Shown one piece after another: positions 11,825 through 49,629 of a stretch of DNA of 64,000 bases. The first letter of the stretch is position 1. Each line of letters starts with the position of its first letter. The stretch is from Eubacteriales bacterium (lineage in GTDB: Bacteria; Bacillota; Clostridia; Oscillospirales; CAG-272), in the NCBI GenBank assembly GCA_045126855.1, contig JBGVPG010000008.1:66158-130157 (forward strand). Direction: 5' to 3'. Below the pieces are notes generated by a model. That model saw only the letters and a list, made by a program, of their open reading frames with translations. It searched no databases and had not been told where the DNA came from. Made by a program: the position numbers and the translations under genes.

Positions 11825-11830
11825 TAAAAA

Positions 11831-11854
11831 TGACCTAAGCCACGGCTTAGGTCA
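11831..11854. terminator. bidirectional terminator between GH3 and NUDIX genes
   Basis: TGACCTAAGC / GCTTAGGTCA stem, loop CACG; overlaps NUDIX stop codon. Confidence 0.65.
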
Positions 11855-12374
11855 TTATTTCTTTAGCTCTTGTGAGAATAGGCAATTCACGGTTGGCAAT
11901 CAATCTTCCAAGGCGTGAGTCCTTGGAGTTTTCGTACTCAGCCACAGCCTTGTCATAGGTCAATCTCATTGTCGTGAGATGCCAGGTATTTATCTCATCA
12001 TCGGTCATATTTTTTTCGCCAAAAGATATGACTCGGCATAGAAAGTAGTTGTTGATATTATGCCTGTGAATGAGGTTGTAATAATCCTCAACAACACCGA
12101 TTTTACAAACGACCTCAACCTCGACTCCAAGCTCCTCCCGAAGCTCTCGGCGAATTGCAGAAATCAACTCCTCGCCCTTTTCAACACCACCGCCCGAGGT
12201 CTCGATTATGGAGCATTTGCCGAAGTCGTCGTCACGCTCTGCGTGTACGAAGTAAAAGTATCCCTCATCATCATAGACAATAGCCCTCACGATCTCTCTG
12301 TCGTGGTCTATGTATTCAAATGGCCACTCGTTATCCACGAGGGAAATGTGTAATTCATTAGGATTCATTTTCAT
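11847..12374 (-). CDS. NUDIX hydrolase
   Basis: 175 aa; Nudix box GGGVEKGEELISAIRRELREELG. Confidence 0.85.
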   Translation of the reverse strand: MKMNPNELHISLVDNEWPFEYIDHDREIVRAIVYDDEGYFYFVHAERDDDFGKCSIIETSGGGVEKGEELISAIRRELREELGVEVEVVCKIGVVEDYYNLIHRHNINNYFLCRVISFGEKNMTDDEINTWHLTTMRLTYDKAVAEYENSKDSRLGRLIANRELPILTRAKEIMT

Positions 12375-12481
12375 TTTTGACTCCGTGATTTGCTATTTCC
12401 AGGCGCTTGCCCACACTCTTCATTCTGAGATAACCTCCGTATACTTTTTCTTACACCGACCTCGTTACGATTGTTTTACTA

Positions 12482-12510
12482 ATTATACCACACCTCGGGA
12501 AATAAATCAA
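12482..12510 (-). promoter_or_regulatory. sigma-A type promoter of NUDIX gene
   Basis: minus strand TTGATT (12510-12505), 17 nt, TATAAT (12487-12482) with TG extension; the -35 lies in the B'' remnant. Confidence 0.45.
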
Positions 12511-12528
12511 GTCTATCCCGTTTCCTAT
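12488..12528 (-). repeat. internally deleted copy (B'') of the B module
   Basis: minus strand ATAGGAAACGGGATAG...CTTGATTTATTTCCCG matches both ends of B (47005-47097); ~57 nt missing inside. Confidence 0.6.
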
Positions 12529-12587
12529 CCAGGTAAAGACCTTGCATAAAAATAAAGACCAAGATTTTCATCCTGGTCTTTACCTGG
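12529..12587 (-). repeat. palindromic module A' (copy of sequence that follows the tRNA-Leu CCA end at 46942-47004)
   Basis: 12548-12590 is a perfect 43-nt reverse-complement match to 46939-46981; contains terminator hairpin AAAGACCAGGAT/ATCTTGGTCTTT + T-run on minus strand. Confidence 0.85.
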
Positions 12588-12592
12588 TGCGC
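12585..12592 (-). repeat. displaced partial tRNA-Leu 3' end (GCGCACCA on minus strand)
   Basis: 7 of 8 nt identical to the CCGCACCA end of the tRNA, and directly abuts module A' as the genuine CCA end does at 46944. Confidence 0.7.
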
Positions 12593-12636
12593 CAGAGAAG
12601 ATAATGTACGAACCTTTTGTAGAGAATTATTTAAGA

Positions 12637-15264
12637 TTAATTCCAATGAGAAACCTTATATTTCTTTCCCATGGCCTTTTCATTGAAAGTGATATAAGAA
12701 CGCTTTCTGCATTTTAAAATCAGCCGCCTGCCGTCCTCACGATGCGTATAAACAGGCTCAAAGTTGCCCGTTGTGGCTTTCAATTTTTTCGCCAACACCT
12801 CTACATACTCTTTCTTTTTGCCAATAATAGAAGGGCAAGCGAAAGAAAGCTCATAGTTATAGCGTTTGAATATGTTTTTAGAAATCAAGATATAACGAGG
12901 ATTTTCAATAGGCGAAAGCATTTCTGCCATAGCCGTATTGAAAACATTTTGATCGTGAATCGATGCGTTTCTCAAATGTAAAGCAACGACATAGAGTTGT
13001 TTGTGCGCAGTTGTTTCAACCTTTGCAGAGGATGATATCAGATCACATTCGTACAGTGTCTTATAAACGGCAACACCAAGCGTTTTGATTGAGTTGGCCG
13101 GATTGAAATGCAACACCATCTTCTTTACACCATGGTATAAAACAACAAACAATCCAATCATCACCGCAAGAGTTCCCAATGTCATCGGAACGTTATTGTT
13201 CGCAATCAGCCTCATTAATGGTTGCAATAATAAAATTTCTGTTGCAACAATAATTGAATTCAATGCGAAATTCCAAAATGTAAATACTGGAATTCTTGCC
13301 TCTTTTGGAATTTCAGTTTCTACATCGACCGCAAAGCTTCCGTCTGCCACTTCTCCACGCCACTTGTTTTTTACTTCGCCGCGGTCGGCAGACAGTTTTA
13401 GCATTTCCTCGTTAATTCGTTCGATGCCGTTTTTATCATAAGGCAGCTTGATCAAGGTAATTCGCTCAATTCCGCTCTCAATCGTCCCAGTAGAATAATT
13501 AGGTCCCATAAAGGAATCGAAGCGGCGTTTTAAAATATCATAGTCATATGAATGGAGCTCCTTGTAATCCTCTTTAAGGTATGCAGAGATCCTTTCCGTA
13601 GCTTTATCTTTGAACAAATATTCCGGTTCAACCGTTACGAGATGCCATATATTCGCCGATTTATCGGGATCGTTTTTGTCAATGCGAATCGCACGTCCGC
13701 GCATTTGGTTGGACAAAACGAAGCTACCGACAAAGCTTGCTAAAATAAGCGAGTTAATGCAAGGGGAATCCCATCCTTCACCGAGAAGCGATTTTGTTCC
13801 GATGAGTATTTGGATTTTCCCCTCCTCGAACAACTTTCCAACGTAATCAACGCCTCGATGGAGTGCTCCTGCAAATTCAACCGTACAGTAATCGGTATCC
13901 GCAATATCCTCTTTTTTGTGTTTAATATCTGAAAGATCAACGGATCTTGGAAGAATAACGAGAGATCCCGAAAGAACTCCGATGTTTACGTTCAAATTTG
14001 CACGACGGAGAGTTTCAAAAATGCTGACGATATTCACCGAATTGAATTCTTCAGCAGATGCAATTTTAGTAAGATTCTCTTTCTTGATATAATCGGTAAG
14101 GACGAGCATACGAAGTCGCTTACCCATTGCCGAAACTTCATTGGAAGCGATACGCTTTATACTCTCAAGCTTTCCTACCGATGAGATAAGAGTTCTTTTC
14201 AAACGCTCGTTCAGATCAAGCGTGACCTTCTTTTTCTCATAAACAGAATGATCCTTTAAAATCGAAATGATCTCTGCTTTCTGTTCTTCAGTAAGCAAAT
14301 CTCCGTTAAGAAGAAATCCGATTGCCGTTTCGGCATACTGCATTTTAAACGTGGGAAGTCCTCTTTTGGCGGTAAGCTCGCGAATCAGTTTATTATCAAT
14401 TTCAAAGCCATAATATTTAAGCAACGTTACAAGAGCTATATATTGCTTGGCATCCGAAAACAGTATATCGTAGTCCCGTTCTGCATTTAAGGATTGACAT
14501 ACATGATCAAATAGATCAAGCTTTCCGAGATCCGCCACAGCAAGTAATGCACGCTCCTTGTGGGTACGGAAGCTTTCTATTTCCAATTCTGTCGGATAAT
14601 TGAAGTACACATAATCCTGATGCGGACACAAGGTGTTTTGACCGACAAGCTCAGGAACGAAAATCTCTTCGTCAATCTCGCCGCAGATGTTCATATATCT
14701 GCTCCACTCAGAGCCTTCAGAATCATACGGAGGCGTAGCTGTGAGAGAAATGATTTTCACATCTTTGTCAAGTGCAGAAATGAATTTTTCAAGTGCCTTC
14801 TGCCACTCGTTTTTGAGATGATGCGCCTCATCAAGACATACGGTTTTTATTCCGAATTCTCTCATAGTAGCAAAGATATCAACATCAGAGCAGTCAATAT
14901 CCTCGTATTCGGTTGCAGATACCTTATCTACAGCAGTGTATAAAGCTTGATATGTTATCGAGTTTACAAGCTTGATATTATGTAGGTCGTTCGAAAAGAG
15001 GACTGGAAAATCCTCTAAATTATCAAGAAACAGATCCTTAAATCTTTCTCCCCACTGCTGGCGAATTGCTGTTGTAGGCGACAAAACAATGCAAGGTGAA
15101 CCCAAACGGCGAATCAATTCAATACCGAGAACAGTTTTTCCACTACCTGGTGCAGCTACAATATTGATTTTTCCGTCTTTAAGATACTTTTCAGCATTTC
15201 TAAGGACGCGTTGCTGATAGTCGCGAAAACTACCCTTAAAATGAACTTTATCAAAATTCGGCAT
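12637..15264 (-). CDS. SF2 (DEAH, ResIII-type) helicase with internal membrane hairpin and unassigned C-terminal domain
   Basis: 875 aa from ATG 15264 (RBS GAGGTGAG; track ORF starts 15279). Walker A AAPGSGKT, DEAH LDEAHH, TATP, motif VI QMRGRAIR. Two hydrophobic helices (FTFWNFALNSIIVATEILLL, TLGTLAVMIGLFVVLY). Confidence 0.85.
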   Translation of the reverse strand: MPNFDKVHFKGSFRDYQQRVLRNAEKYLKDGKINIVAAPGSGKTVLGIELIRRLGSPCIVLSPTTAIRQQWGERFKDLFLDNLEDFPVLFSNDLHNIKLVNSITYQALYTAVDKVSATEYEDIDCSDVDIFATMREFGIKTVCLDEAHHLKNEWQKALEKFISALDKDVKIISLTATPPYDSEGSEWSRYMNICGEIDEEIFVPELVGQNTLCPHQDYVYFNYPTELEIESFRTHKERALLAVADLGKLDLFDHVCQSLNAERDYDILFSDAKQYIALVTLLKYYGFEIDNKLIRELTAKRGLPTFKMQYAETAIGFLLNGDLLTEEQKAEIISILKDHSVYEKKKVTLDLNERLKRTLISSVGKLESIKRIASNEVSAMGKRLRMLVLTDYIKKENLTKIASAEEFNSVNIVSIFETLRRANLNVNIGVLSGSLVILPRSVDLSDIKHKKEDIADTDYCTVEFAGALHRGVDYVGKLFEEGKIQILIGTKSLLGEGWDSPCINSLILASFVGSFVLSNQMRGRAIRIDKNDPDKSANIWHLVTVEPEYLFKDKATERISAYLKEDYKELHSYDYDILKRRFDSFMGPNYSTGTIESGIERITLIKLPYDKNGIERINEEMLKLSADRGEVKNKWRGEVADGSFAVDVETEIPKEARIPVFTFWNFALNSIIVATEILLLQPLMRLIANNNVPMTLGTLAVMIGLFVVLYHGVKKMVLHFNPANSIKTLGVAVYKTLYECDLISSSAKVETTAHKQLYVVALHLRNASIHDQNVFNTAMAEMLSPIENPRYILISKNIFKRYNYELSFACPSIIGKKKEYVEVLAKKLKATTGNFEPVYTHREDGRRLILKCRKRSYITFNEKAMGKKYKVSHWN

Positions 15265-15293
15265 ACTCTCACCTCTCATTATTTTCTAAAACA

Positions 15294-15322
15294 AGTATAG
15301 CACATATTTCCAAATAATGCAA
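15294..15322 (-). promoter_or_regulatory. sigma-A type promoter of helicase gene
   Basis: minus strand TTGCAT (15322-15317), 17 nt, TATACT (15299-15294). Confidence 0.5.
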
Positions 15323-15323
15323 C

Positions 15324-15351
15324 AAAAAAGCAATTCTTCAAGAAGAATTGC
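15324..15351 (-). terminator. intrinsic terminator just upstream of helicase promoter
   Basis: minus strand GCAATTCTTC TT GAAGAATTGC followed by TTTTTT. Confidence 0.7.
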
Positions 15352-15405
15352 ATTAAATAATTAATTTATCCAGCGATTTGAATACCAAAGTAATCCCTTG
15401 TAAAG

Positions 15406-15440
15406 AAAAAGTACAAACCCTGATTACTCTGGGTTCGTAC
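15406..15440 (-). terminator. intrinsic terminator after module B'
   Basis: minus strand GTACGAACCC / GGGTTTGTAC stem (G-U pair) followed by TTTTT. Confidence 0.6.
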
Positions 15441-15449
15441 TATACTGTT

Positions 15450-15541
15450 TGGTGCGGGAAATGTCAGGCGTTAAGAAAACTCTTGATAAGAGTTTTTAGC
15501 CTGAAGACTGAAGCGATAGCTGAAGTCTGTCCCGTTCCCGC
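15450..15541 (-). repeat. module B' (92 nt; tRNA-end mimic with hairpin and triple CTTCAG repeat)
   Basis: minus strand starts GCGGGAA, ends TTCCCGCACCA; homologous to 47008-47097 with compensatory changes in the central hairpin. Confidence 0.7.
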
Positions 15542-15560
15542 TCAACAAAAAAAGCAGACC

Positions 15561-15710
15561 GTGGAAACGGGATCTTGAATGGAGTTCGTTTACGAACTCC
15601 ACTAAGTTTTCTTTGACGGTTAGACACCGTCATTTTGCAATGCAAAAGCAGAAAACGTTAGCCCGTAAGTTTGCCTACGGCAAACAACGGGTTCTTCGTC
15701 ACCGTTCCAC
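15561..15710 (-). other. module D' (150-nt multi-hairpin element closed by GTGGAACGG / CCGTTTCCAC)
   Basis: nested hairpins GTTTGCC/GGCAAAC, GACGGT/ACCGTC, GGAGTTCG/CGAACTCC; 3' end TTCAAGATCCCGTTTCC resembles tRNA T-arm/acceptor; tail ACGGTCTGCTTTTTTT. Confidence 0.5.
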
Positions 15711-15715
15711 GCAAA

Positions 15716-15750
15716 CAAAAAGAGGTCAACCCAAAGGTCAACCTCTTTTT
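15716..15750 (-). terminator. intrinsic terminator (C') directly after tRNA-Leu
   Basis: minus strand AAAAAGAGGTTGACC TTTG GGTTGACCTCTTTTT. Confidence 0.75.
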
Positions 15751-15752
15751 GT

Positions 15753-15836
15753 TGGTGCGGGAAACGGGACTTGAACCCGTACATCAAAGATACACGCCCC
15801 TCAAACGTGCGCGTCTGCCGATTCCGCCACTCCCGC
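15753..15836 (-). tRNA. tRNA-Leu (anticodon GAG), type II, CCA encoded
   Basis: acceptor GCGGGAG/TTCCCGC, anticodon stem CACGT/GCGTG with loop TTGAGGG, 12-nt variable arm, T-arm ACGGG-TTCAAGT-CCCGT; 84/84 identical to 46861-46944. Confidence 0.95.
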
Positions 15837-15848
15837 GAGCGCTTTACT

Positions 15849-15877
15849 ATTATAAAGCATAATATTTAATTTGTCAA
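15849..15877 (-). promoter_or_regulatory. sigma-A type promoter of tRNA-Leu copy 1
   Basis: minus strand TTGACA (15877-15872), 17 nt, TATAAT (15854-15849), 12 nt before mature 5' end. Confidence 0.6.
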
Positions 15878-15947
15878 TACCTTTTTAATAAAAAAATAAA
15901 AAAATTATTACATTGTCTGACAAATCTATAAGCCGTGGAAATTTCGG

Positions 15948-15976
15948 TTGACAGAAAAACCCGACTGTGGTATAAT
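15948..15976 (+). promoter_or_regulatory. sigma-A type promoter of M28 peptidase gene
   Basis: TTGACA 15948-15953, 17 nt, TATAAT 15971-15976 with TG extension. Confidence 0.55.
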
Positions 15977-15996
15977 CAATGCCAACGGAGGGTATT

Positions 15997-16905
15997 ATGA
16001 AGGATTATTTAAACGAAATTAATGATAAATTTCCCATAAGGAAATCTGACAAAGAAAAACAGGCTTTTTACGACTACGTTGCTTCAGATCTCGGATGTGA
16101 CAGGGTGAAGATTGAGCAGCTTGAGAACAACAATAACATTATTATTGGCGATCCGTCGAGTGCGAAGGCAATTTTTACAGCGCATTATGACACACCTGCA
16201 TCATCTCCTATGCCAAACTTTATGATTCCTGCAAACAAGGTTCTTGGAACCTTGATTAATTTCTGCTATCCCTTGGCAGTTGCGATTATCAGCCTGCTTT
16301 TGGGATTTGGTGTAGGTGACTTGCTTGGGTTTGATAACAACGAGTGTGTGCTTTTATATCTTGTATTTTATTTTTCCATATTTTTCTTTACGCGACTTGT
16401 ACCGAACAAGCATAACAAAAATGACAACACCTCGGGTGTTGCCACGGTAATGTCTATCGCTGCGAAATATAACAATGAAAAAGTAGCGTTTATCCTTTTT
16501 GACAACGAGGAAAAGGGTCTTCTTGGTTCGAAGGCGTATAACAAGAAATACAAGAAGATGATGGAAGATAAACTCCTAGTAAACCTTGACTGCGTTGGCA
16601 ACGGCGATCAGATTGTGCTTATTCCAAAGGAAAAAATTATTGATTCCGAGGAGTATAAACTTCTATCCGAGGTATTCTCGGGTGATACGGACGGCTTTAG
16701 TGTGCATCAGATTCCATTCAAAAAGAGTCTCGGAAACTCCGATCACAAGAGCTTTCCCGGTTCGGTTGGAGTTATGGCGGCAAGAAAGGGAAAGGTGCTG
16801 AAGCTTGTTACCGGCAGAATCCACACTGCAAAGGATACCATGGCTGACAGTAAGAATATTTTGTTTCTCTCTACTCGATTTGGCGAGTTTATCGATAGGC
16901 TATAA
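15997..16905 (+). CDS. membrane-associated M28-family metallopeptidase
   Basis: start moved to ATG 15997 (GGAGGG RBS; ATG 15979 lies about at the TSS); motifs HYDT, DNEEKGLLGS, internal TM helices. Confidence 0.75.
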   Translation: MKDYLNEINDKFPIRKSDKEKQAFYDYVASDLGCDRVKIEQLENNNNIIIGDPSSAKAIFTAHYDTPASSPMPNFMIPANKVLGTLINFCYPLAVAIISLLLGFGVGDLLGFDNNECVLLYLVFYFSIFFFTRLVPNKHNKNDNTSGVATVMSIAAKYNNEKVAFILFDNEEKGLLGSKAYNKKYKKMMEDKLLVNLDCVGNGDQIVLIPKEKIIDSEEYKLLSEVFSGDTDGFSVHQIPFKKSLGNSDHKSFPGSVGVMAARKGKVLKLVTGRIHTAKDTMADSKNILFLSTRFGEFIDRL

Positions 16906-16945
16906 AAAATGCCTTTGGTCCTGTGACCAAAGGCATTTTTTTATA

Positions 16946-46860: not shown

Positions 46861-46944
46861 GCGGGAGTGGCGGAATCGGCAGACGCGCACGTTTGAGGGG
46901 CGTGTATCTTTGATGTACGGGTTCAAGTCCCGTTTCCCGCACCA
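46861..46944 (+). tRNA. tRNA-Leu (anticodon GAG), type II, CCA encoded
   Basis: same cloverleaf as 15753-15836 (identical sequence). Confidence 0.95.
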
Positions 46945-47004
46945 GGTAAAGACCAGGATGAAAATCTTGGTCTTTATTTTTGTTTATGCCTGGTCTTTAC
47001 CTGG
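46942..47004 (+). repeat. palindromic module A (perfect 16-bp inverted repeats enclosing a terminator)
   Basis: CCAGGTAAAGACCAGG 46942-46957 and CCTGGTCTTTACCTGG 46989-47004; inner hairpin AAAGACCAGG/CTTGGTCTTT + ATTTTT. Confidence 0.8.
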
Positions 47005-47007
47005 ATA

Positions 47008-47097
47008 GGAAACGGGACAGTTTTCAGGCAAGCCTTCAAACTTCAAGCTAAAAACGATTATCAATCGTTTTCTTAACGCTTGACATTTCCCGCACCA
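47008..47097 (+). repeat. module B (90 nt), ends in TTTCCCGCACCA
   Basis: homologous to complement 15450-15541; hairpin 47051-47071; repeats TTTCAG/CTTCAA/CTTCAA at 47022, 47034, 47041. Confidence 0.7.
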
Positions 47098-47104
47098 ACA
47101 AAAA

Positions 47105-47131
47105 GAGCAGACCAATCGGTCTGCTTTTTTT
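47105..47131. terminator. bidirectional intrinsic terminator (C)
   Basis: A-run, GCAGACC AAT CGGTCTGC, TTTTTTT. Confidence 0.75.
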
Positions 47132-47139
47132 GTTGGTAT

Positions 47140-47244
47140 GGGGACGGGCTTGAAGGGGAAGCGGTAGTGAATGACAGTCCGGTGGACTGTCAGAGCCGCG
47201 GAAGACCGAGCGCGTAGTTCGCGCGAGAATCAAGTCCCGTTTCC
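47140..47244 (+). other. module D (105-nt structured element closed by GGGGACGGG / CCCGTTTCC)
   Basis: internal hairpins GACAGTCC/GGACTGTC and GCGCG/CGCGC, GCGG/CCGC helix; 3' end TCAAGTCCCGTTTCC identical to tRNA T-arm/acceptor; tail ACGGTCTGCCTTTTTTT. Confidence 0.5.
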
Positions 47245-47345
47245 ACGGTCTGCCTTTTTTTCTTTGTGAAAATGTATAAATGGGATATTTTTCGATACGA
47301 TCCTGTACTTGTTTATTCATTGTATTACCTCGATAAGATGGGAAA

Positions 47346-48287: not shown

Positions 48288-48305
48288 GCTATCGAAAAAA
48301 ATAAT

Positions 48306-48428
48306 GCTTATCAAGAGTGGTGGAGGGACTGGCCCTGTGAAACCCGGCAACCTGTTTTTTCAAGGTGCTAATTCCCGATAGATGAGTTGTGCTCAAAAGC
48401 TCGGGGGTCAAGTGCCTCCCGAGCTTTT
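48306..48428 (+). promoter_or_regulatory. SAM-I (S-box) riboswitch with terminator expression platform
   Basis: CTTATCAAGAGTGGTGGAGGGACTGGCCCTGTGAAACCCGGCAACC...GGTGCTAATTCC...GATGAG matches the S-box core; terminator AAAAGCTCGGG...CCCGAGCTTTT 48395-48428. Confidence 0.9.
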
Positions 48429-48450
48429 GATATATACGAAAGGAAACAAT

Positions 48451-49629
48451 ATGAAAAAGATTCTTTTTACATCCGAGTCTGTTACTGAGGGACATCCCGA
48501 CAAAATCTGCGACAAAATATCGGATGCAATTCTTGATGAAATGCTTGCACAGGATCCTATGTCCCGTGTAGCATGTGAGACCTTTGCCACAACGGGTATA
48601 ATTACCGTTATGGGTGAGATCACCACAAAGGCGCGCGTTGATATTCAGAAGATCGTGCGTGACACGGTAACCGAGATCGGCTATGACAGGGCAAAGTACG
48701 GCTTTGATGCAGGTACTTGTGCCGTTCTCAGCTCTATTCACGAGCAGAGCGCGGATATCGCTCTTGGCGTTGATAAGTGCCTTGAGGCAAAGGAGGGCGA
48801 GTACGACCAGCTGGACACCGGTGCAGGTGACCAGGGCCTTATGTTCGGATATGCTTGTGATGAGACTCCCGAGCTTATGCCTCTGCCCATTTCTCTTGCT
48901 CACAAGCTTGCAAAGCGCCTTACCGAGGTAAGAAAGAACGGAACGCTCTCCTACCTTCGTCCTGACGGAAAGACCCAGGTTACCATTGAATATATCGACG
49001 GTGTTCCCAGCCGTGTGGACACTATCGTAGTATCCTCTCAGCATTCTGCTGACGTTGACAGCGCTACTATTCGTAAGGATATTATTGACAAGGTTATTCT
49101 TCCTATCATTCCCGGTGAGCTTCTTGACGGAAAGGTTAATATTTACGTTAACCCTACCGGCCGCTTTGTAATCGGCGGTCCTCAGGGTGACACAGGCCTC
49201 ACGGGTAGAAAGATCATCGTTGATACCTACGGCGGTTACTCCCGTCACGGCGGTGGCGCATTCTCCGGCAAGGACCCCACAAAGGTTGACCGTAGTGCAT
49301 CCTACGCAGCAAGATACGTTGCCAAGAATATCGTTAAGGCAGGTCTTGCTAAGAAGTGCGAGGTTCAGATCGCATACGCAATCGGTATTGCAAAGCCCGT
49401 ATCGGTTATGATCGATACATTCGGCACTGCAACCGTTGATGAGGAGAAGATCGTTGCGGCTGTAAATCAGCTCGTTGATCTTCGTCCTGCAGCAATCATT
49501 AAGAAGTTCGAGCTTAGAAAGCCTATTTACAAGCAGCTCGCAGCCTATGGACACATGGGTAGAGAAGAGCTTGGCGTAAAGTGGGAAGAGACCGACATTG
49601 CGGACAAGCTTGCAGAGCTTTGCAAGTAA
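48451..49629 (+). CDS. metK: S-adenosylmethionine synthetase
   Basis: start ATG 48451 ([18 protein letters not shown]); [15 protein letters not shown] motifs; the track ORF start 48382 lies inside the riboswitch. Confidence 0.95.

Follow-up and report, generated by a model that had tools for sequence, protein, structure and literature searches.

Tandem accretion of elements at tRNA genes and the decay of integrated elements to cis-mobilizable elements (CIMEs) have been documented for the ICESt1/ICESt3-related elements of Streptococcus thermophilus (PMC5704250), and tRNA-bounded stacks with partial tRNAs have been documented in the tycheposon islands of Prochlorococcus (bioRxiv 10.1101/2020.12.28.424599). 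In this work, we analyzed a 2,858-bp cassette with a single helicase gene, located near a tRNA-Leu(GAG) gene in a 64,000-nt stretch of chromosome from an uncultured Clostridia bacterium (contig JBGVPG010000008.1, positions 66,158 to 130,157; hereafter the window). The cassette and the tRNA-Leu features are read mostly on the minus strand, and L-numbers denote the loci used for comparison. Sequence comparisons show that the cassette is a discrete unit with horizontal spread. Our preferred explanation, to which we assign a probability of about 0.58, is that it would be one unit of a tandem accretion array at the tRNA-Leu attachment site, CIME-like and served by an integrase acting in trans. The original prediction, made from the sequence of the window, had proposed a site-specific insertion into the tRNA 3' end; we did indeed find a discrete unit that moves horizontally and has its ends at tRNA-Leu 3'-end copies, but not a lone insertion. 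The features of the cassette, in minus-strand order, are the following:

15450-15456, minus strand: left heptamer copy, CGCACCA (TGGTGCG on the plus strand), from the sequence.
12592-15449, minus strand: the cassette, 2,858 bp, with two terminators, its own promoter, the helicase gene and a 45-nt tail; homologous over its whole length, and ending at the same points, in L063, L001-L004 and L005.
15405-15440 (approximately), minus strand: first hairpin-terminator, starting 9 nt past the junction and holding the left subterminal repeat GTACGAACC (15432-15440); from the sequence, conserved in all copies.
15324-15351, minus strand: second intrinsic terminator within the cassette, from the promoter/terminator scan.
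15294-15322, minus strand: cassette promoter, TTGCAT, 17 nt and TG-extended TATACT; read from the sequence, conserved in L001, L003, L005, L025 and L063.
12637-15264, minus strand: cargo gene for an 875-aa XPB/Hef-like superfamily 2 helicase (Pfam, PDB search, Foldseek).
12606-12614, minus strand: right subterminal repeat GGTTCGTAC, an inverted copy of 15432-15440, conserved in L001, L005, L063 and L064.
12585-12591, minus strand: right heptamer CGCACCA, remnant of a decayed tRNA-Leu 3' end, attR-like; from the right-end comparison across copies.

The contents between the heptamers (one open reading frame (ORF), two terminator hairpins and one promoter) are those originally described, the reverse complements of 15450-15461 and 12585-12592 read TTTCCCGCACCA and GCGCACCA, respectively, and the 43-nt reverse-complement match between 12548-12590 and 46939-46981 is perfect. 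The cassette promoter, TTGCAT-17-TATACT, was read by eye and is absent from the consensus-scan output. A 7-mer repeat 2.9 kb apart has a chance probability of about 0.16; the 43-nt match and the recurrence of the exact end points in other genomes are not explicable by chance. The subterminal repeats are 9 bp long, and an 8-mer inverted repeat arises in 2.4% of shuffles. The right-end motif TGGNGCACCA (12585-12594) forms a near-perfect 10-bp palindrome, for which L064 has TGGTGCACCA (about 2690-2700).

The cassette segment recurs at 88-96% identity, with the same ends, in six contexts comprising five left and five right neighbours. Modules A, B and D, which occupy part of these neighbouring positions, are described further below.

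Window: left, terminator-D'-B'; right, A'.
L001-L004: 91.2% identity (94% for amino acids); left, genuine tRNA-Leu; right, terminator and a large B module (Bbig).
L063: 95.0%, end to end; left, B-like variant ending in GGTGCACCA; right, terminator and a D-like module.
L025: 95.8%, right end missing; left, A-B; right, deleted, with the helicase stop 6 nt from the start of a NUDIX gene.
L005: 88.2%; left, the end of another cassette, cas3-type, ...CTCACAA; right, unrelated DNA after TTGCACCA.
L064: 94.1%; left, contig begins inside the cassette; right, different DNA after GGTGCACCA.

Throughout these contexts the join lies exactly at ...ACCA. In L001-L004 the homology to the window (15461 to 12584) stretches between the two copies of the tRNA end, and the right neighbours in L005 and L064 are unrelated in sequence to those of the other contexts. 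Because the same cassette, with exactly the same ends, has different neighbours in relatives, it appears to be a small mobile or recently mobile islet; and since copies at least 94% identical differ in their neighbours, the comparison argues for recent rearrangement at its junctions. The cassette itself may still be moving, or newer units may insert around it.

The divergence of the cassette also sets it apart from its surroundings. Between the window and L001, identity at third codon positions was 0.80 for the helicase and 0.43-0.64 for the gyrB-like, iPGM, rluD-like, LysM/CAP and M28 genes, with nucleotide identities of 91% for the cassette versus 80.6%. The GC content is 39-41% in the helicase cassette versus 46-51% in flanking genes, and the NUDIX-M28 interval (about 11.8-16.9 kb; 11825-16945) has 39-44% as against 46-51% in GH3 and M29/M20. 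The low-GC island within GH3...M29 consists of the NUDIX gene, the helicase, the tRNA array and the M28 peptidase.

A search for an empty site in close relatives had been suggested. In L018, a metagenome-assembled genome (MAG) of Oscillospiraceae, the syntenic order is GH3 (67% aa), tRNA-Leu, terminator-D, terminator-D, A-B, terminator and M29; the GH3...M29 interval holds no protein-coding unit, NUDIX and M28 being missing too, and a junction of D with A exists there with no cassette between them. L018 thus provides a syntenic interval free of the protein cassette, but an empty allele from the same species was not found. L019 has a helix-turn-helix (HTH) gene and a 137-aa ORF at the syntenic position and no cassette. 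Within the window, the uninterrupted junction GCACCA/GGTAAAGACC that had been noted is seen at the second tRNA-Leu locus (46944/46945); since that locus has an intact CCA/GGTAAAGACC junction and no helicase, the duplication excludes the helicase, and the alternative of a larger segmental duplication including it is ruled out. Vertical inheritance at this position had been named as evidence that would speak against an insertion: L025, a relative at the same-species level, keeps the helicase at the same place beside the NUDIX gene, with synonymous similarities of 0.92 for the helicase and 0.91 for NUDIX, but L018 and L019 lack the cassette there. Its position in L025 indicates that the cassette is now vertically inherited within this lineage.

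Evidence that the tRNA end is a recombination target came from phages. Two IMG/VR phage contigs, L021 (23-760) and L022 (9664-10830), carry a Phage_integrase-family gene (tyrosine integrase), and the large family of this integrase occurs on contigs of about 40 kb, a phage-genome size. In L022, 61 nt past the integrase, TACGGGTTCAAGTCCCGTTTCCCGCACCA provides 29 nt identical to the tRNA-Leu(GAG) 3' end, with a terminator hairpin immediately after. On the evidence of these contigs, the tRNA-Leu 3' end is a real attachment site, for which a matching integrase and predicted attP exist. The layout in which CCA is at once followed by a terminator is common to the L022 attP, the helicase cassette and all other units of these arrays. 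The tRNA-Leu gene is 100% identical across nearly all related loci examined, with one at 98.8%. In L026 (23-3250), a helicase of the same family (92% aa) follows 5S rRNA and tRNA-Asn genes, with a degenerate tRNA-Asn 3'-end copy downstream (26/29 columns match); members of the family are also found near tRNA-Asn in L034, L035 and L051. These tRNA-Asn contexts suggest that this helicase family is a habitual passenger of tRNA-linked islets.

The right end of the cassette can be related to the same target. In L005 it reads CTCCCGTTTTTTGCACCA, and 14 of the last 17 positions match the tRNA 3' end; the right ends of the window and of L001 have drifted further and only (C)GCACCA remains. Since the L005 right end still matches the tRNA at 14/17 positions, the heptamer is the leftover of a longer tRNA copy of the attR type. 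The heptamers of the original prediction are real, but what they delimit is one unit of an array, and the right one is the decayed form of a longer tRNA copy. The helicase cassette is not alone in this behaviour, as at least three other units show exact junctions beside different neighbours: the unit starting TAAAGAAACCATAATATTGATACG... occurs after B in L008/L017 and after cas3 in L055; GAAAAAGACTCAGG... is found behind Bbig in L001/L003 and behind cas3 in L005; and AAAAAGTCGTATC... comes after Bbig in L003 and after B in L011.

According to our preferred explanation, the array would grow at the tRNA-Leu(GAG) 3' end, an attachment site for tyrosine-integrase elements of this uncultured gut Clostridia clade. 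An integrase would recombine incoming elements into the tRNA 3' end or into a copy of that end farther downstream. Each element would bring its own terminator and leave a copy of the tRNA end on its far side, so that older units would be pushed outward. A terminator placed after ...GCACCA at the start of each unit would let a tRNA-targeting element rebuild a working tRNA gene. The helicase unit would retain its two ends, of which the right has decayed to (C)GCACCA, and no recombination genes; its movement, if any, would proceed through a tRNA-Leu-specific integrase provided in trans by a phage or an integrative element, and its cargo would be expressed from its own promoter, insulated by the two upstream terminators. 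We infer the recombination chemistry, the dependence on a trans integrase and the role of the cargo from these arrangements. If this explanation holds, the junction of an excised circle would read ...CTCTGGCGCACCA/AACAGTATAG..., also written ...TCTTCTCTGGCGCACCA/AACAGTATAGTACG..., and that of the empty site ...GACATTTCCCGCACCA/GGTAAAGACC....

Several observations weigh against this explanation. Neither the window nor the 4-8 kb around each of about 20 related arrays showed an integrase. For the window, essentially all ORFs of at least 70 aa were scanned against Pfam, those below about 70 aa lying outside the scan, and no integrase, resolvase, transposase or Xis was found; the window is thus as recombinase-less as first stated, and a few small ORFs with no Pfam match may be excisionases. 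The identity at the right end amounts to merely 6-7 nt with drifting neighbouring bases, as expected of a dead site, and no inverted core-type sites were seen by eye around CGCACCA. The distance from the helicase stop to the att remnant is 45 nt, and with this spacing a derivation by deletion from a larger element would be remarkably tidy. In L025, a deletion of about 250 bp has removed the right end of the cassette, fusing the helicase to NUDIX. Neither an excised circle nor a same-species allele lacking the cassette was found, which can be attributed to the contigs of that species breaking at repeats: in exact-protein look-ups for same-species alleles (helicase, NUDIX and M28), the helicase was absent from the records and the NUDIX and M28 contigs stop exactly at repeats (CGCACCAGG..., tRNA body). 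Finally, the units of the array might instead be shuffled as their many short repeats recombine with one another.

This last possibility leads to the rival that survives best, although we consider it unlikely: repeat-driven homologous or microhomology recombination, including recombination after DNA uptake, with no dedicated recombinase and with the helicase as a trapped accessory gene. The repeats in question would be the tRNA 3' copies, the B and D modules and the palindromic terminators, and recombination among them would add, remove, duplicate, invert or swap units. Near-identical tRNA genes and B modules about 85-90% identical give homology for such exchange. Tandem duplicate D units in L018, duplicate B units in L016/L020, a B in L025 that looks chimeric between B types, the inversion of the tRNA array relative to L018/L019, the 250-bp deletion in L025 and the occurrence of the helicase ORF alone, with different flanks, in other cassette types are all in its favor. 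Against it, homology among the left neighbours (B, tRNA body and cas3) does not extend past 5-12 nt, and still they join at the identical nucleotide; the other units mentioned above behave in the same exact way beside unrelated neighbours; and every unit begins with a terminator right after CCA, exactly as in the L022 attP.

The second rival concerns the spacers of the array. Both tRNA-Leu copies of the original prediction were identified as tRNA-Leu(GAG), and the array elements at the two loci are the following:

15849-15877, minus strand: promoter of tRNA-Leu copy 1, consensus TTGACA-17-TATAAT, from the promoter scan; 90% similar to the copy-2 promoter.
15753-15836, minus strand: tRNA-Leu(GAG) copy 1, the array anchor (attB-like); ARAGORN, and Rfam RF00005 at 46.8 bits.
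15707-15760, minus strand: palindrome with 25-bp arms, an extended bidirectional terminator that includes the CCGCACCA end of the tRNA; inverted-repeat search.
15546-15712, minus strand: module D', a structured spacer with four hairpins, ending in tRNA-like TCAAGATCCCGTTTCC; fold z = -6.4, homologous copies in L018 and L012.
15450-15548, minus strand: module B', left neighbour of the cassette, ending in TTTCCCGCACCA; covariance-model match of 114.5 bits, covariation.
12521-12584, minus strand: module A', a terminator hairpin and second arm, with the same sequence as after tRNA-Leu copy 2; 43-nt match, inverted repeats.
12503-12520, minus strand: truncated 5' start of a B module (GGATAGGAAACGGGATAG) that abuts the NUDIX promoter; from the sequence, compare 47003-47020.
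46861-46944, plus strand: tRNA-Leu(GAG) copy 2, the paralogous "empty" site, with CCA directly followed by module A; ARAGORN/Rfam and sequence.
46945-47007, plus strand: module A of locus 2; sequence, inverted repeats.
46999-47097, plus strand: module B of locus 2; covariance-model match of 116.5 bits.
47139-47262, plus strand: module D of locus 2, a hairpin whose closing stem of 15 bp pairs TCAAGTCCCGTTTCC (tRNA 3' fragment) with its inverted copy; from the fold.

On the minus strand, the order of the array is terminator-D', B', cassette and A'; each unit opens with a terminator after ...CCA and ends with another tRNA-like end. A palindrome of 25-27 bp surrounds each ...CCA end, which falls in its left arm, and the loop of the next terminator forms its centre (e.g. 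47089-47142, 46927-47018 and 15707-15760); in the last of these, the arms (15707-15731 and 15736-15760) are 80% complementary. Locus 2 has a perfect inverted repeat of 16 bp inside one of 11 bp that spans the tRNA T-stem/acceptor strand. Beyond the 43-nt match, the two loci stay 92% similar out to 12516/47017. The D' hairpins show compensatory changes in the L018 and L012 copies, as judged by eye, the copies being too few for statistics; in L018, positions 2186-2599 are copies of the D module whose inner hairpins vary in a compensatory manner relative to the window (also by eye). In Rfam, none of modules A, B and D reached a gathering threshold, with the tRNAs and a SAM (S-adenosylmethionine) riboswitch alone passing, and the permissive E-value mode gave only chance-level hairpin matches for the three modules. 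A sub-threshold match to "PGK RNA" (29.9 bits, E about 1) was attributed to chance.

A promoter-like CTGACA-17-TATAGT that spans the junction between B' and the cassette (15439-15467, minus strand) was dropped; it is also present in L025 but absent from the other contexts, and is probably fortuitous. The two tRNA-Leu(GAG) genes, which have near-identical promoters, are inverted and 31 kb apart, and the array of copy 1 is inverted relative to L018/L019; such inverted tRNA-Leu repeats may drive chromosomal inversions.

Module B is the best characterized of these spacers. A pattern scan with one genome per species found it in 13 loci from about 10 MAGs, with the tRNA-Leu(GAG) gene just upstream in 10/13, those whose stretch reaches far enough; the covariance model recovered 27 copies in the DNA examined, all within tRNA-Leu arrays. 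B starts with GGAAACGGGAC, a perfect inverted copy of GTCCCGTTTCC of the tRNA, and ends with the last 12 nt of the tRNA. In an alignment of 15 copies, two hairpins carry compensatory changes (CAGGC/GCCTG, CAAGC/GCTTG, CGTGC/GCACG; CGATT/AATCG versus CTCTT/AAGAG). Paired cells amount to 95.3% as compared with 85.0% in shuffles, and double-change cells to 43 versus 15.6, a value reached by 0/500 shuffles; sliding the partners by 1-3 columns lowers pairing to 25-48%. The closing stem is invariant, so that it is untouched by the covariation test, and the sequence as a whole is 84% conserved on average. No Rfam family corresponds to B, and IMG/VR scans with two patterns found none. From these comparisons, B is an undescribed conserved structured element, tied to tRNA-Leu(GAG) in about 10 species of uncultured Clostridia. 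Species retain B at their two tRNA-Leu loci even in the absence of a cassette, so that B probably has a function of its own, as an RNA produced from the tRNA trailer or as a DNA site that folds. G:U and A:C mismatches in B are about equally frequent and favor neither strand.

These properties bear on the possibility that the tRNA-Leu(GAG) trailer is a tRNA-anchored platform for cassette capture, like an integron but made of different parts, with its recombinase elsewhere in the genome or on a phage. We regard this as doubtful, and slightly more so the particular version in which the tRNA-Leu 3' end acts as attI and B/D (perhaps also cas3) as folded, single-stranded attC; an inverted copy of the tRNA end would pair there with a direct one and restore the duplex target, and the recombinase would insert or excise cassettes exactly at ...ACCA. 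In its favor, the B hairpins covary, D is closed by a stem of a tRNA 3' fragment and its inverted copy, the ...CCA ends lie in palindromes, and the fold is kept while hairpin sequence varies, as in attC or in the attP of CTX-phi, a phage that rebuilds a duplex site from a folded single strand using the host XerCD (PMC6744903). Furthermore, several unrelated single-gene cassettes recur at different array positions with exact junctions, and the equal numbers of G:U and A:C mismatches give no sign of one transcribed strand. On the other side, there is no recombinase next to the tRNA in any locus, the R''/R' boxes (RYYYAAC/GTTRRRY) are absent from B and D, and the sequence of B is about 85-90% conserved, unlike attC. 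In addition, the end of the helicase cassette has no B- or D-like fold (z = -1.3), the cassettes have their own promoters and terminators, the invariant closing stem of B escapes covariation, and the conservation of B at both tRNA-Leu loci in about 10 species, with or without a cassette, fits an RNA or terminator-linked role no less well.

An ordinary vertically inherited chromosome, with flanking repeats due to chance or to local duplication of the tRNA trailer, is very improbable: L025 holds the helicase at the same position with a synonymous similarity equal to that of NUDIX, and the heptamer repeat alone could be chance, but the exact ends in six contexts, the excess synonymous similarity across species, the low GC content, the absence of the cassette from syntenic L018 and L019 and the duplicated tRNA locus without a helicase all contradict it.

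As for the cargo, the helicase has more than 6,799 homologues, all in uncultured Clostridia and all of 875 aa. Pfam identified ResIII, DEAD and a weak Helicase_C, a PDB sequence search pointed to archaeal XPB/Rad25, and Foldseek recovered the XPB and Hef helicase core with a low-confidence AlphaFold model (mean pLDDT 62.7, pTM 0.34), whose C-terminal half is too poor to interpret. Past about residue 560, the protein continues with a hydrophobic segment predicted to be helical (about 660-740) and with a C-terminal domain that is conserved but matches no family. PADLOC, NCBIfam and PHROGs gave no specific name for the helicase, and it had no match among the PADLOC-DB models. The helicase ORF also occurs alone, with other flanks, in other cassette types. 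The adjacent NUDIX gene (11847-12374, minus strand) matches the PADLOC candidate PDC-S07 (E = 2e-9) and has its own promoter (12482-12510); in L025, the deletion of about 250 bp places it 6 nt past the helicase stop, forming an operon. A role in defence or against mobile elements is plausible.

Sister single-gene cassettes were observed in L003 (10963-13389), L001 (10963-12175), L005 (380-3938), L015 (1-1442) and L055 (1-330), with unrelated ORFs between shared 5' ("cas5", about 90 nt) and 3' ("cas3", about 110 nt) regions. Their cargo includes small membrane proteins, HTH regulators, DUF7677 and a set resembling restriction-modification genes. The cas3 region carries TGCACCC repeats and a T-arm-like hairpin, and the join lies exactly after ...CTCACA(A/G); a viral scan for this type of end gave one real match, L055, and one chance match inside an ORF, which was discarded. 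Multi-hairpin elements are found 5' of many cassettes (L003 10985-11200 and 12300-12500; L026 3270-3420; L057 5700-5950); each repeats a 9-mer three times and then its complement four times, with small GC hairpins in between. The 9-mer varies from one cassette to the next (GATGAAATC, ATATCATCA, ATGGCATC, AGTGAAGTT), and these elements had no Rfam match at gathering or permissive thresholds.

According to Pfam, the genes of the window are those of an ordinary chromosome, including ligA, a gyrB-like gene, the dcw cell-division cluster, recD2, uxaC, metK and ruvAB; the SAM riboswitch (48305-48388, plus strand, 69.8 bits) lies in front of metK (48382-49629). In L002 (1-5903), the region upstream of LysM/CAP is swapped in one sample for a mobile-element-like block, instead of ligA...iPGM, which contains a D5_N primase, two DNA methyltransferases and an ICEA nuclease.

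If the cassette and its sisters move as single-gene pieces without an integrase, accessory genes could be traded among uncultured gut Clostridia in tiny packets. These would carry candidate anti-phage genes, such as the helicase and the adjacent NUDIX, by means of an integrase borrowed from a phage or another element, and software that finds islands by seeking an integrase would miss such traffic entirely. If instead the integron-like platform were true, it would be without precedent both in Firmicutes-type bacteria and as a system anchored at a tRNA, with many of its cassettes as candidate defence or accessory genes. In either case, B is a well-supported undescribed element on one tRNA gene, which may be a small RNA from the trailer or a folded recombination site.

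Among the described systems, the cassette resembles a CIME in that its integration and transfer genes were lost or never present, in its tandem arrangement at one att site and in that movement would need a related integrase. It is bounded by CGCACCA on both sides, with the tRNA itself on the left in L001-L004 and a decayed copy on the right in L005, at a site that phages use, and the helicase is its sole ORF, so that there are no integration, excision or transfer genes. It differs from CIMEs in its much smaller size, 2.9 kb with one gene, which is also far below that of the cargo-only remnants in tRNA-bounded islands, in a right att copy of 6-7 nt and in the conserved structured spacers that separate the units of the array; moreover, no remnants of integrase or transfer genes that would indicate descent from an integrative and conjugative or integrative and mobilizable element are present. 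With tycheposons it shares the partial tRNA copies between units, the degenerate remnants and the cargo-only pieces, and it would share the entry of new elements at the tRNA and the outward displacement of older ones. However, tycheposons carry their own tyrosine recombinase and replication genes, which no unit in the about 20 arrays does, and the host phylum, target tRNA and cargo are different. Compared with a tRNA-integrating phage, prophage or self-contained tRNA island, whose classical layout L022 displays for this very tRNA, the cassette has a left end that likewise reads CCA and then a terminator; its protein content is ResIII/DEAD only, with no integrase by the att end, excisionase or phage genes, unlike L022, and its identity block is far shorter than 29 nt.

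Integrons and clusters of attC sites lacking integron-integrases (CALIN) have in common with this locus the arrays of single genes joined at exact points, the palindromic spacers conserved in fold and the lack of a cassette recombinase. Here, in contrast, there is no IntI or other integrase beside the tRNA in any locus, no attI by an integrase and no R''/R' consensus in B or D; the units have their own promoters and terminators, and the spacers are anchored at a tRNA and conserved in sequence, B covarying in its fold and yet being 84% conserved on average. Acinetobacter pdif modules are reportedly XerCD-dependent units, and the cassette is similar to these and to integrative mobile elements exploiting Xer (IMEX), such as CTX-phi and TLC-phi, as a mobile unit that would lack its own recombinase and use an enzyme encoded elsewhere; its junction is unlike dif, it targets a tRNA 3' end and there is no Xer gene in the window. 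An IS200/IS605 element or a palindrome-associated transposable element (PATE) would fit the insertion 3' of CACCA and the left-end hairpin 9 nt from the junction; a right-end hairpin is absent, and the window has no Y1 transposase. Our literature search found no description of a tRNA-anchored integron-like cassette system or of integrase-less satellites relying on a helper integrase. Altogether, compared with these systems, the cassette is an unusually minimal integrase-less unit in a tRNA accretion array, and it is the structured B and D modules, together with the shuffling of single-gene units at exact junctions, that would surprise a specialist.

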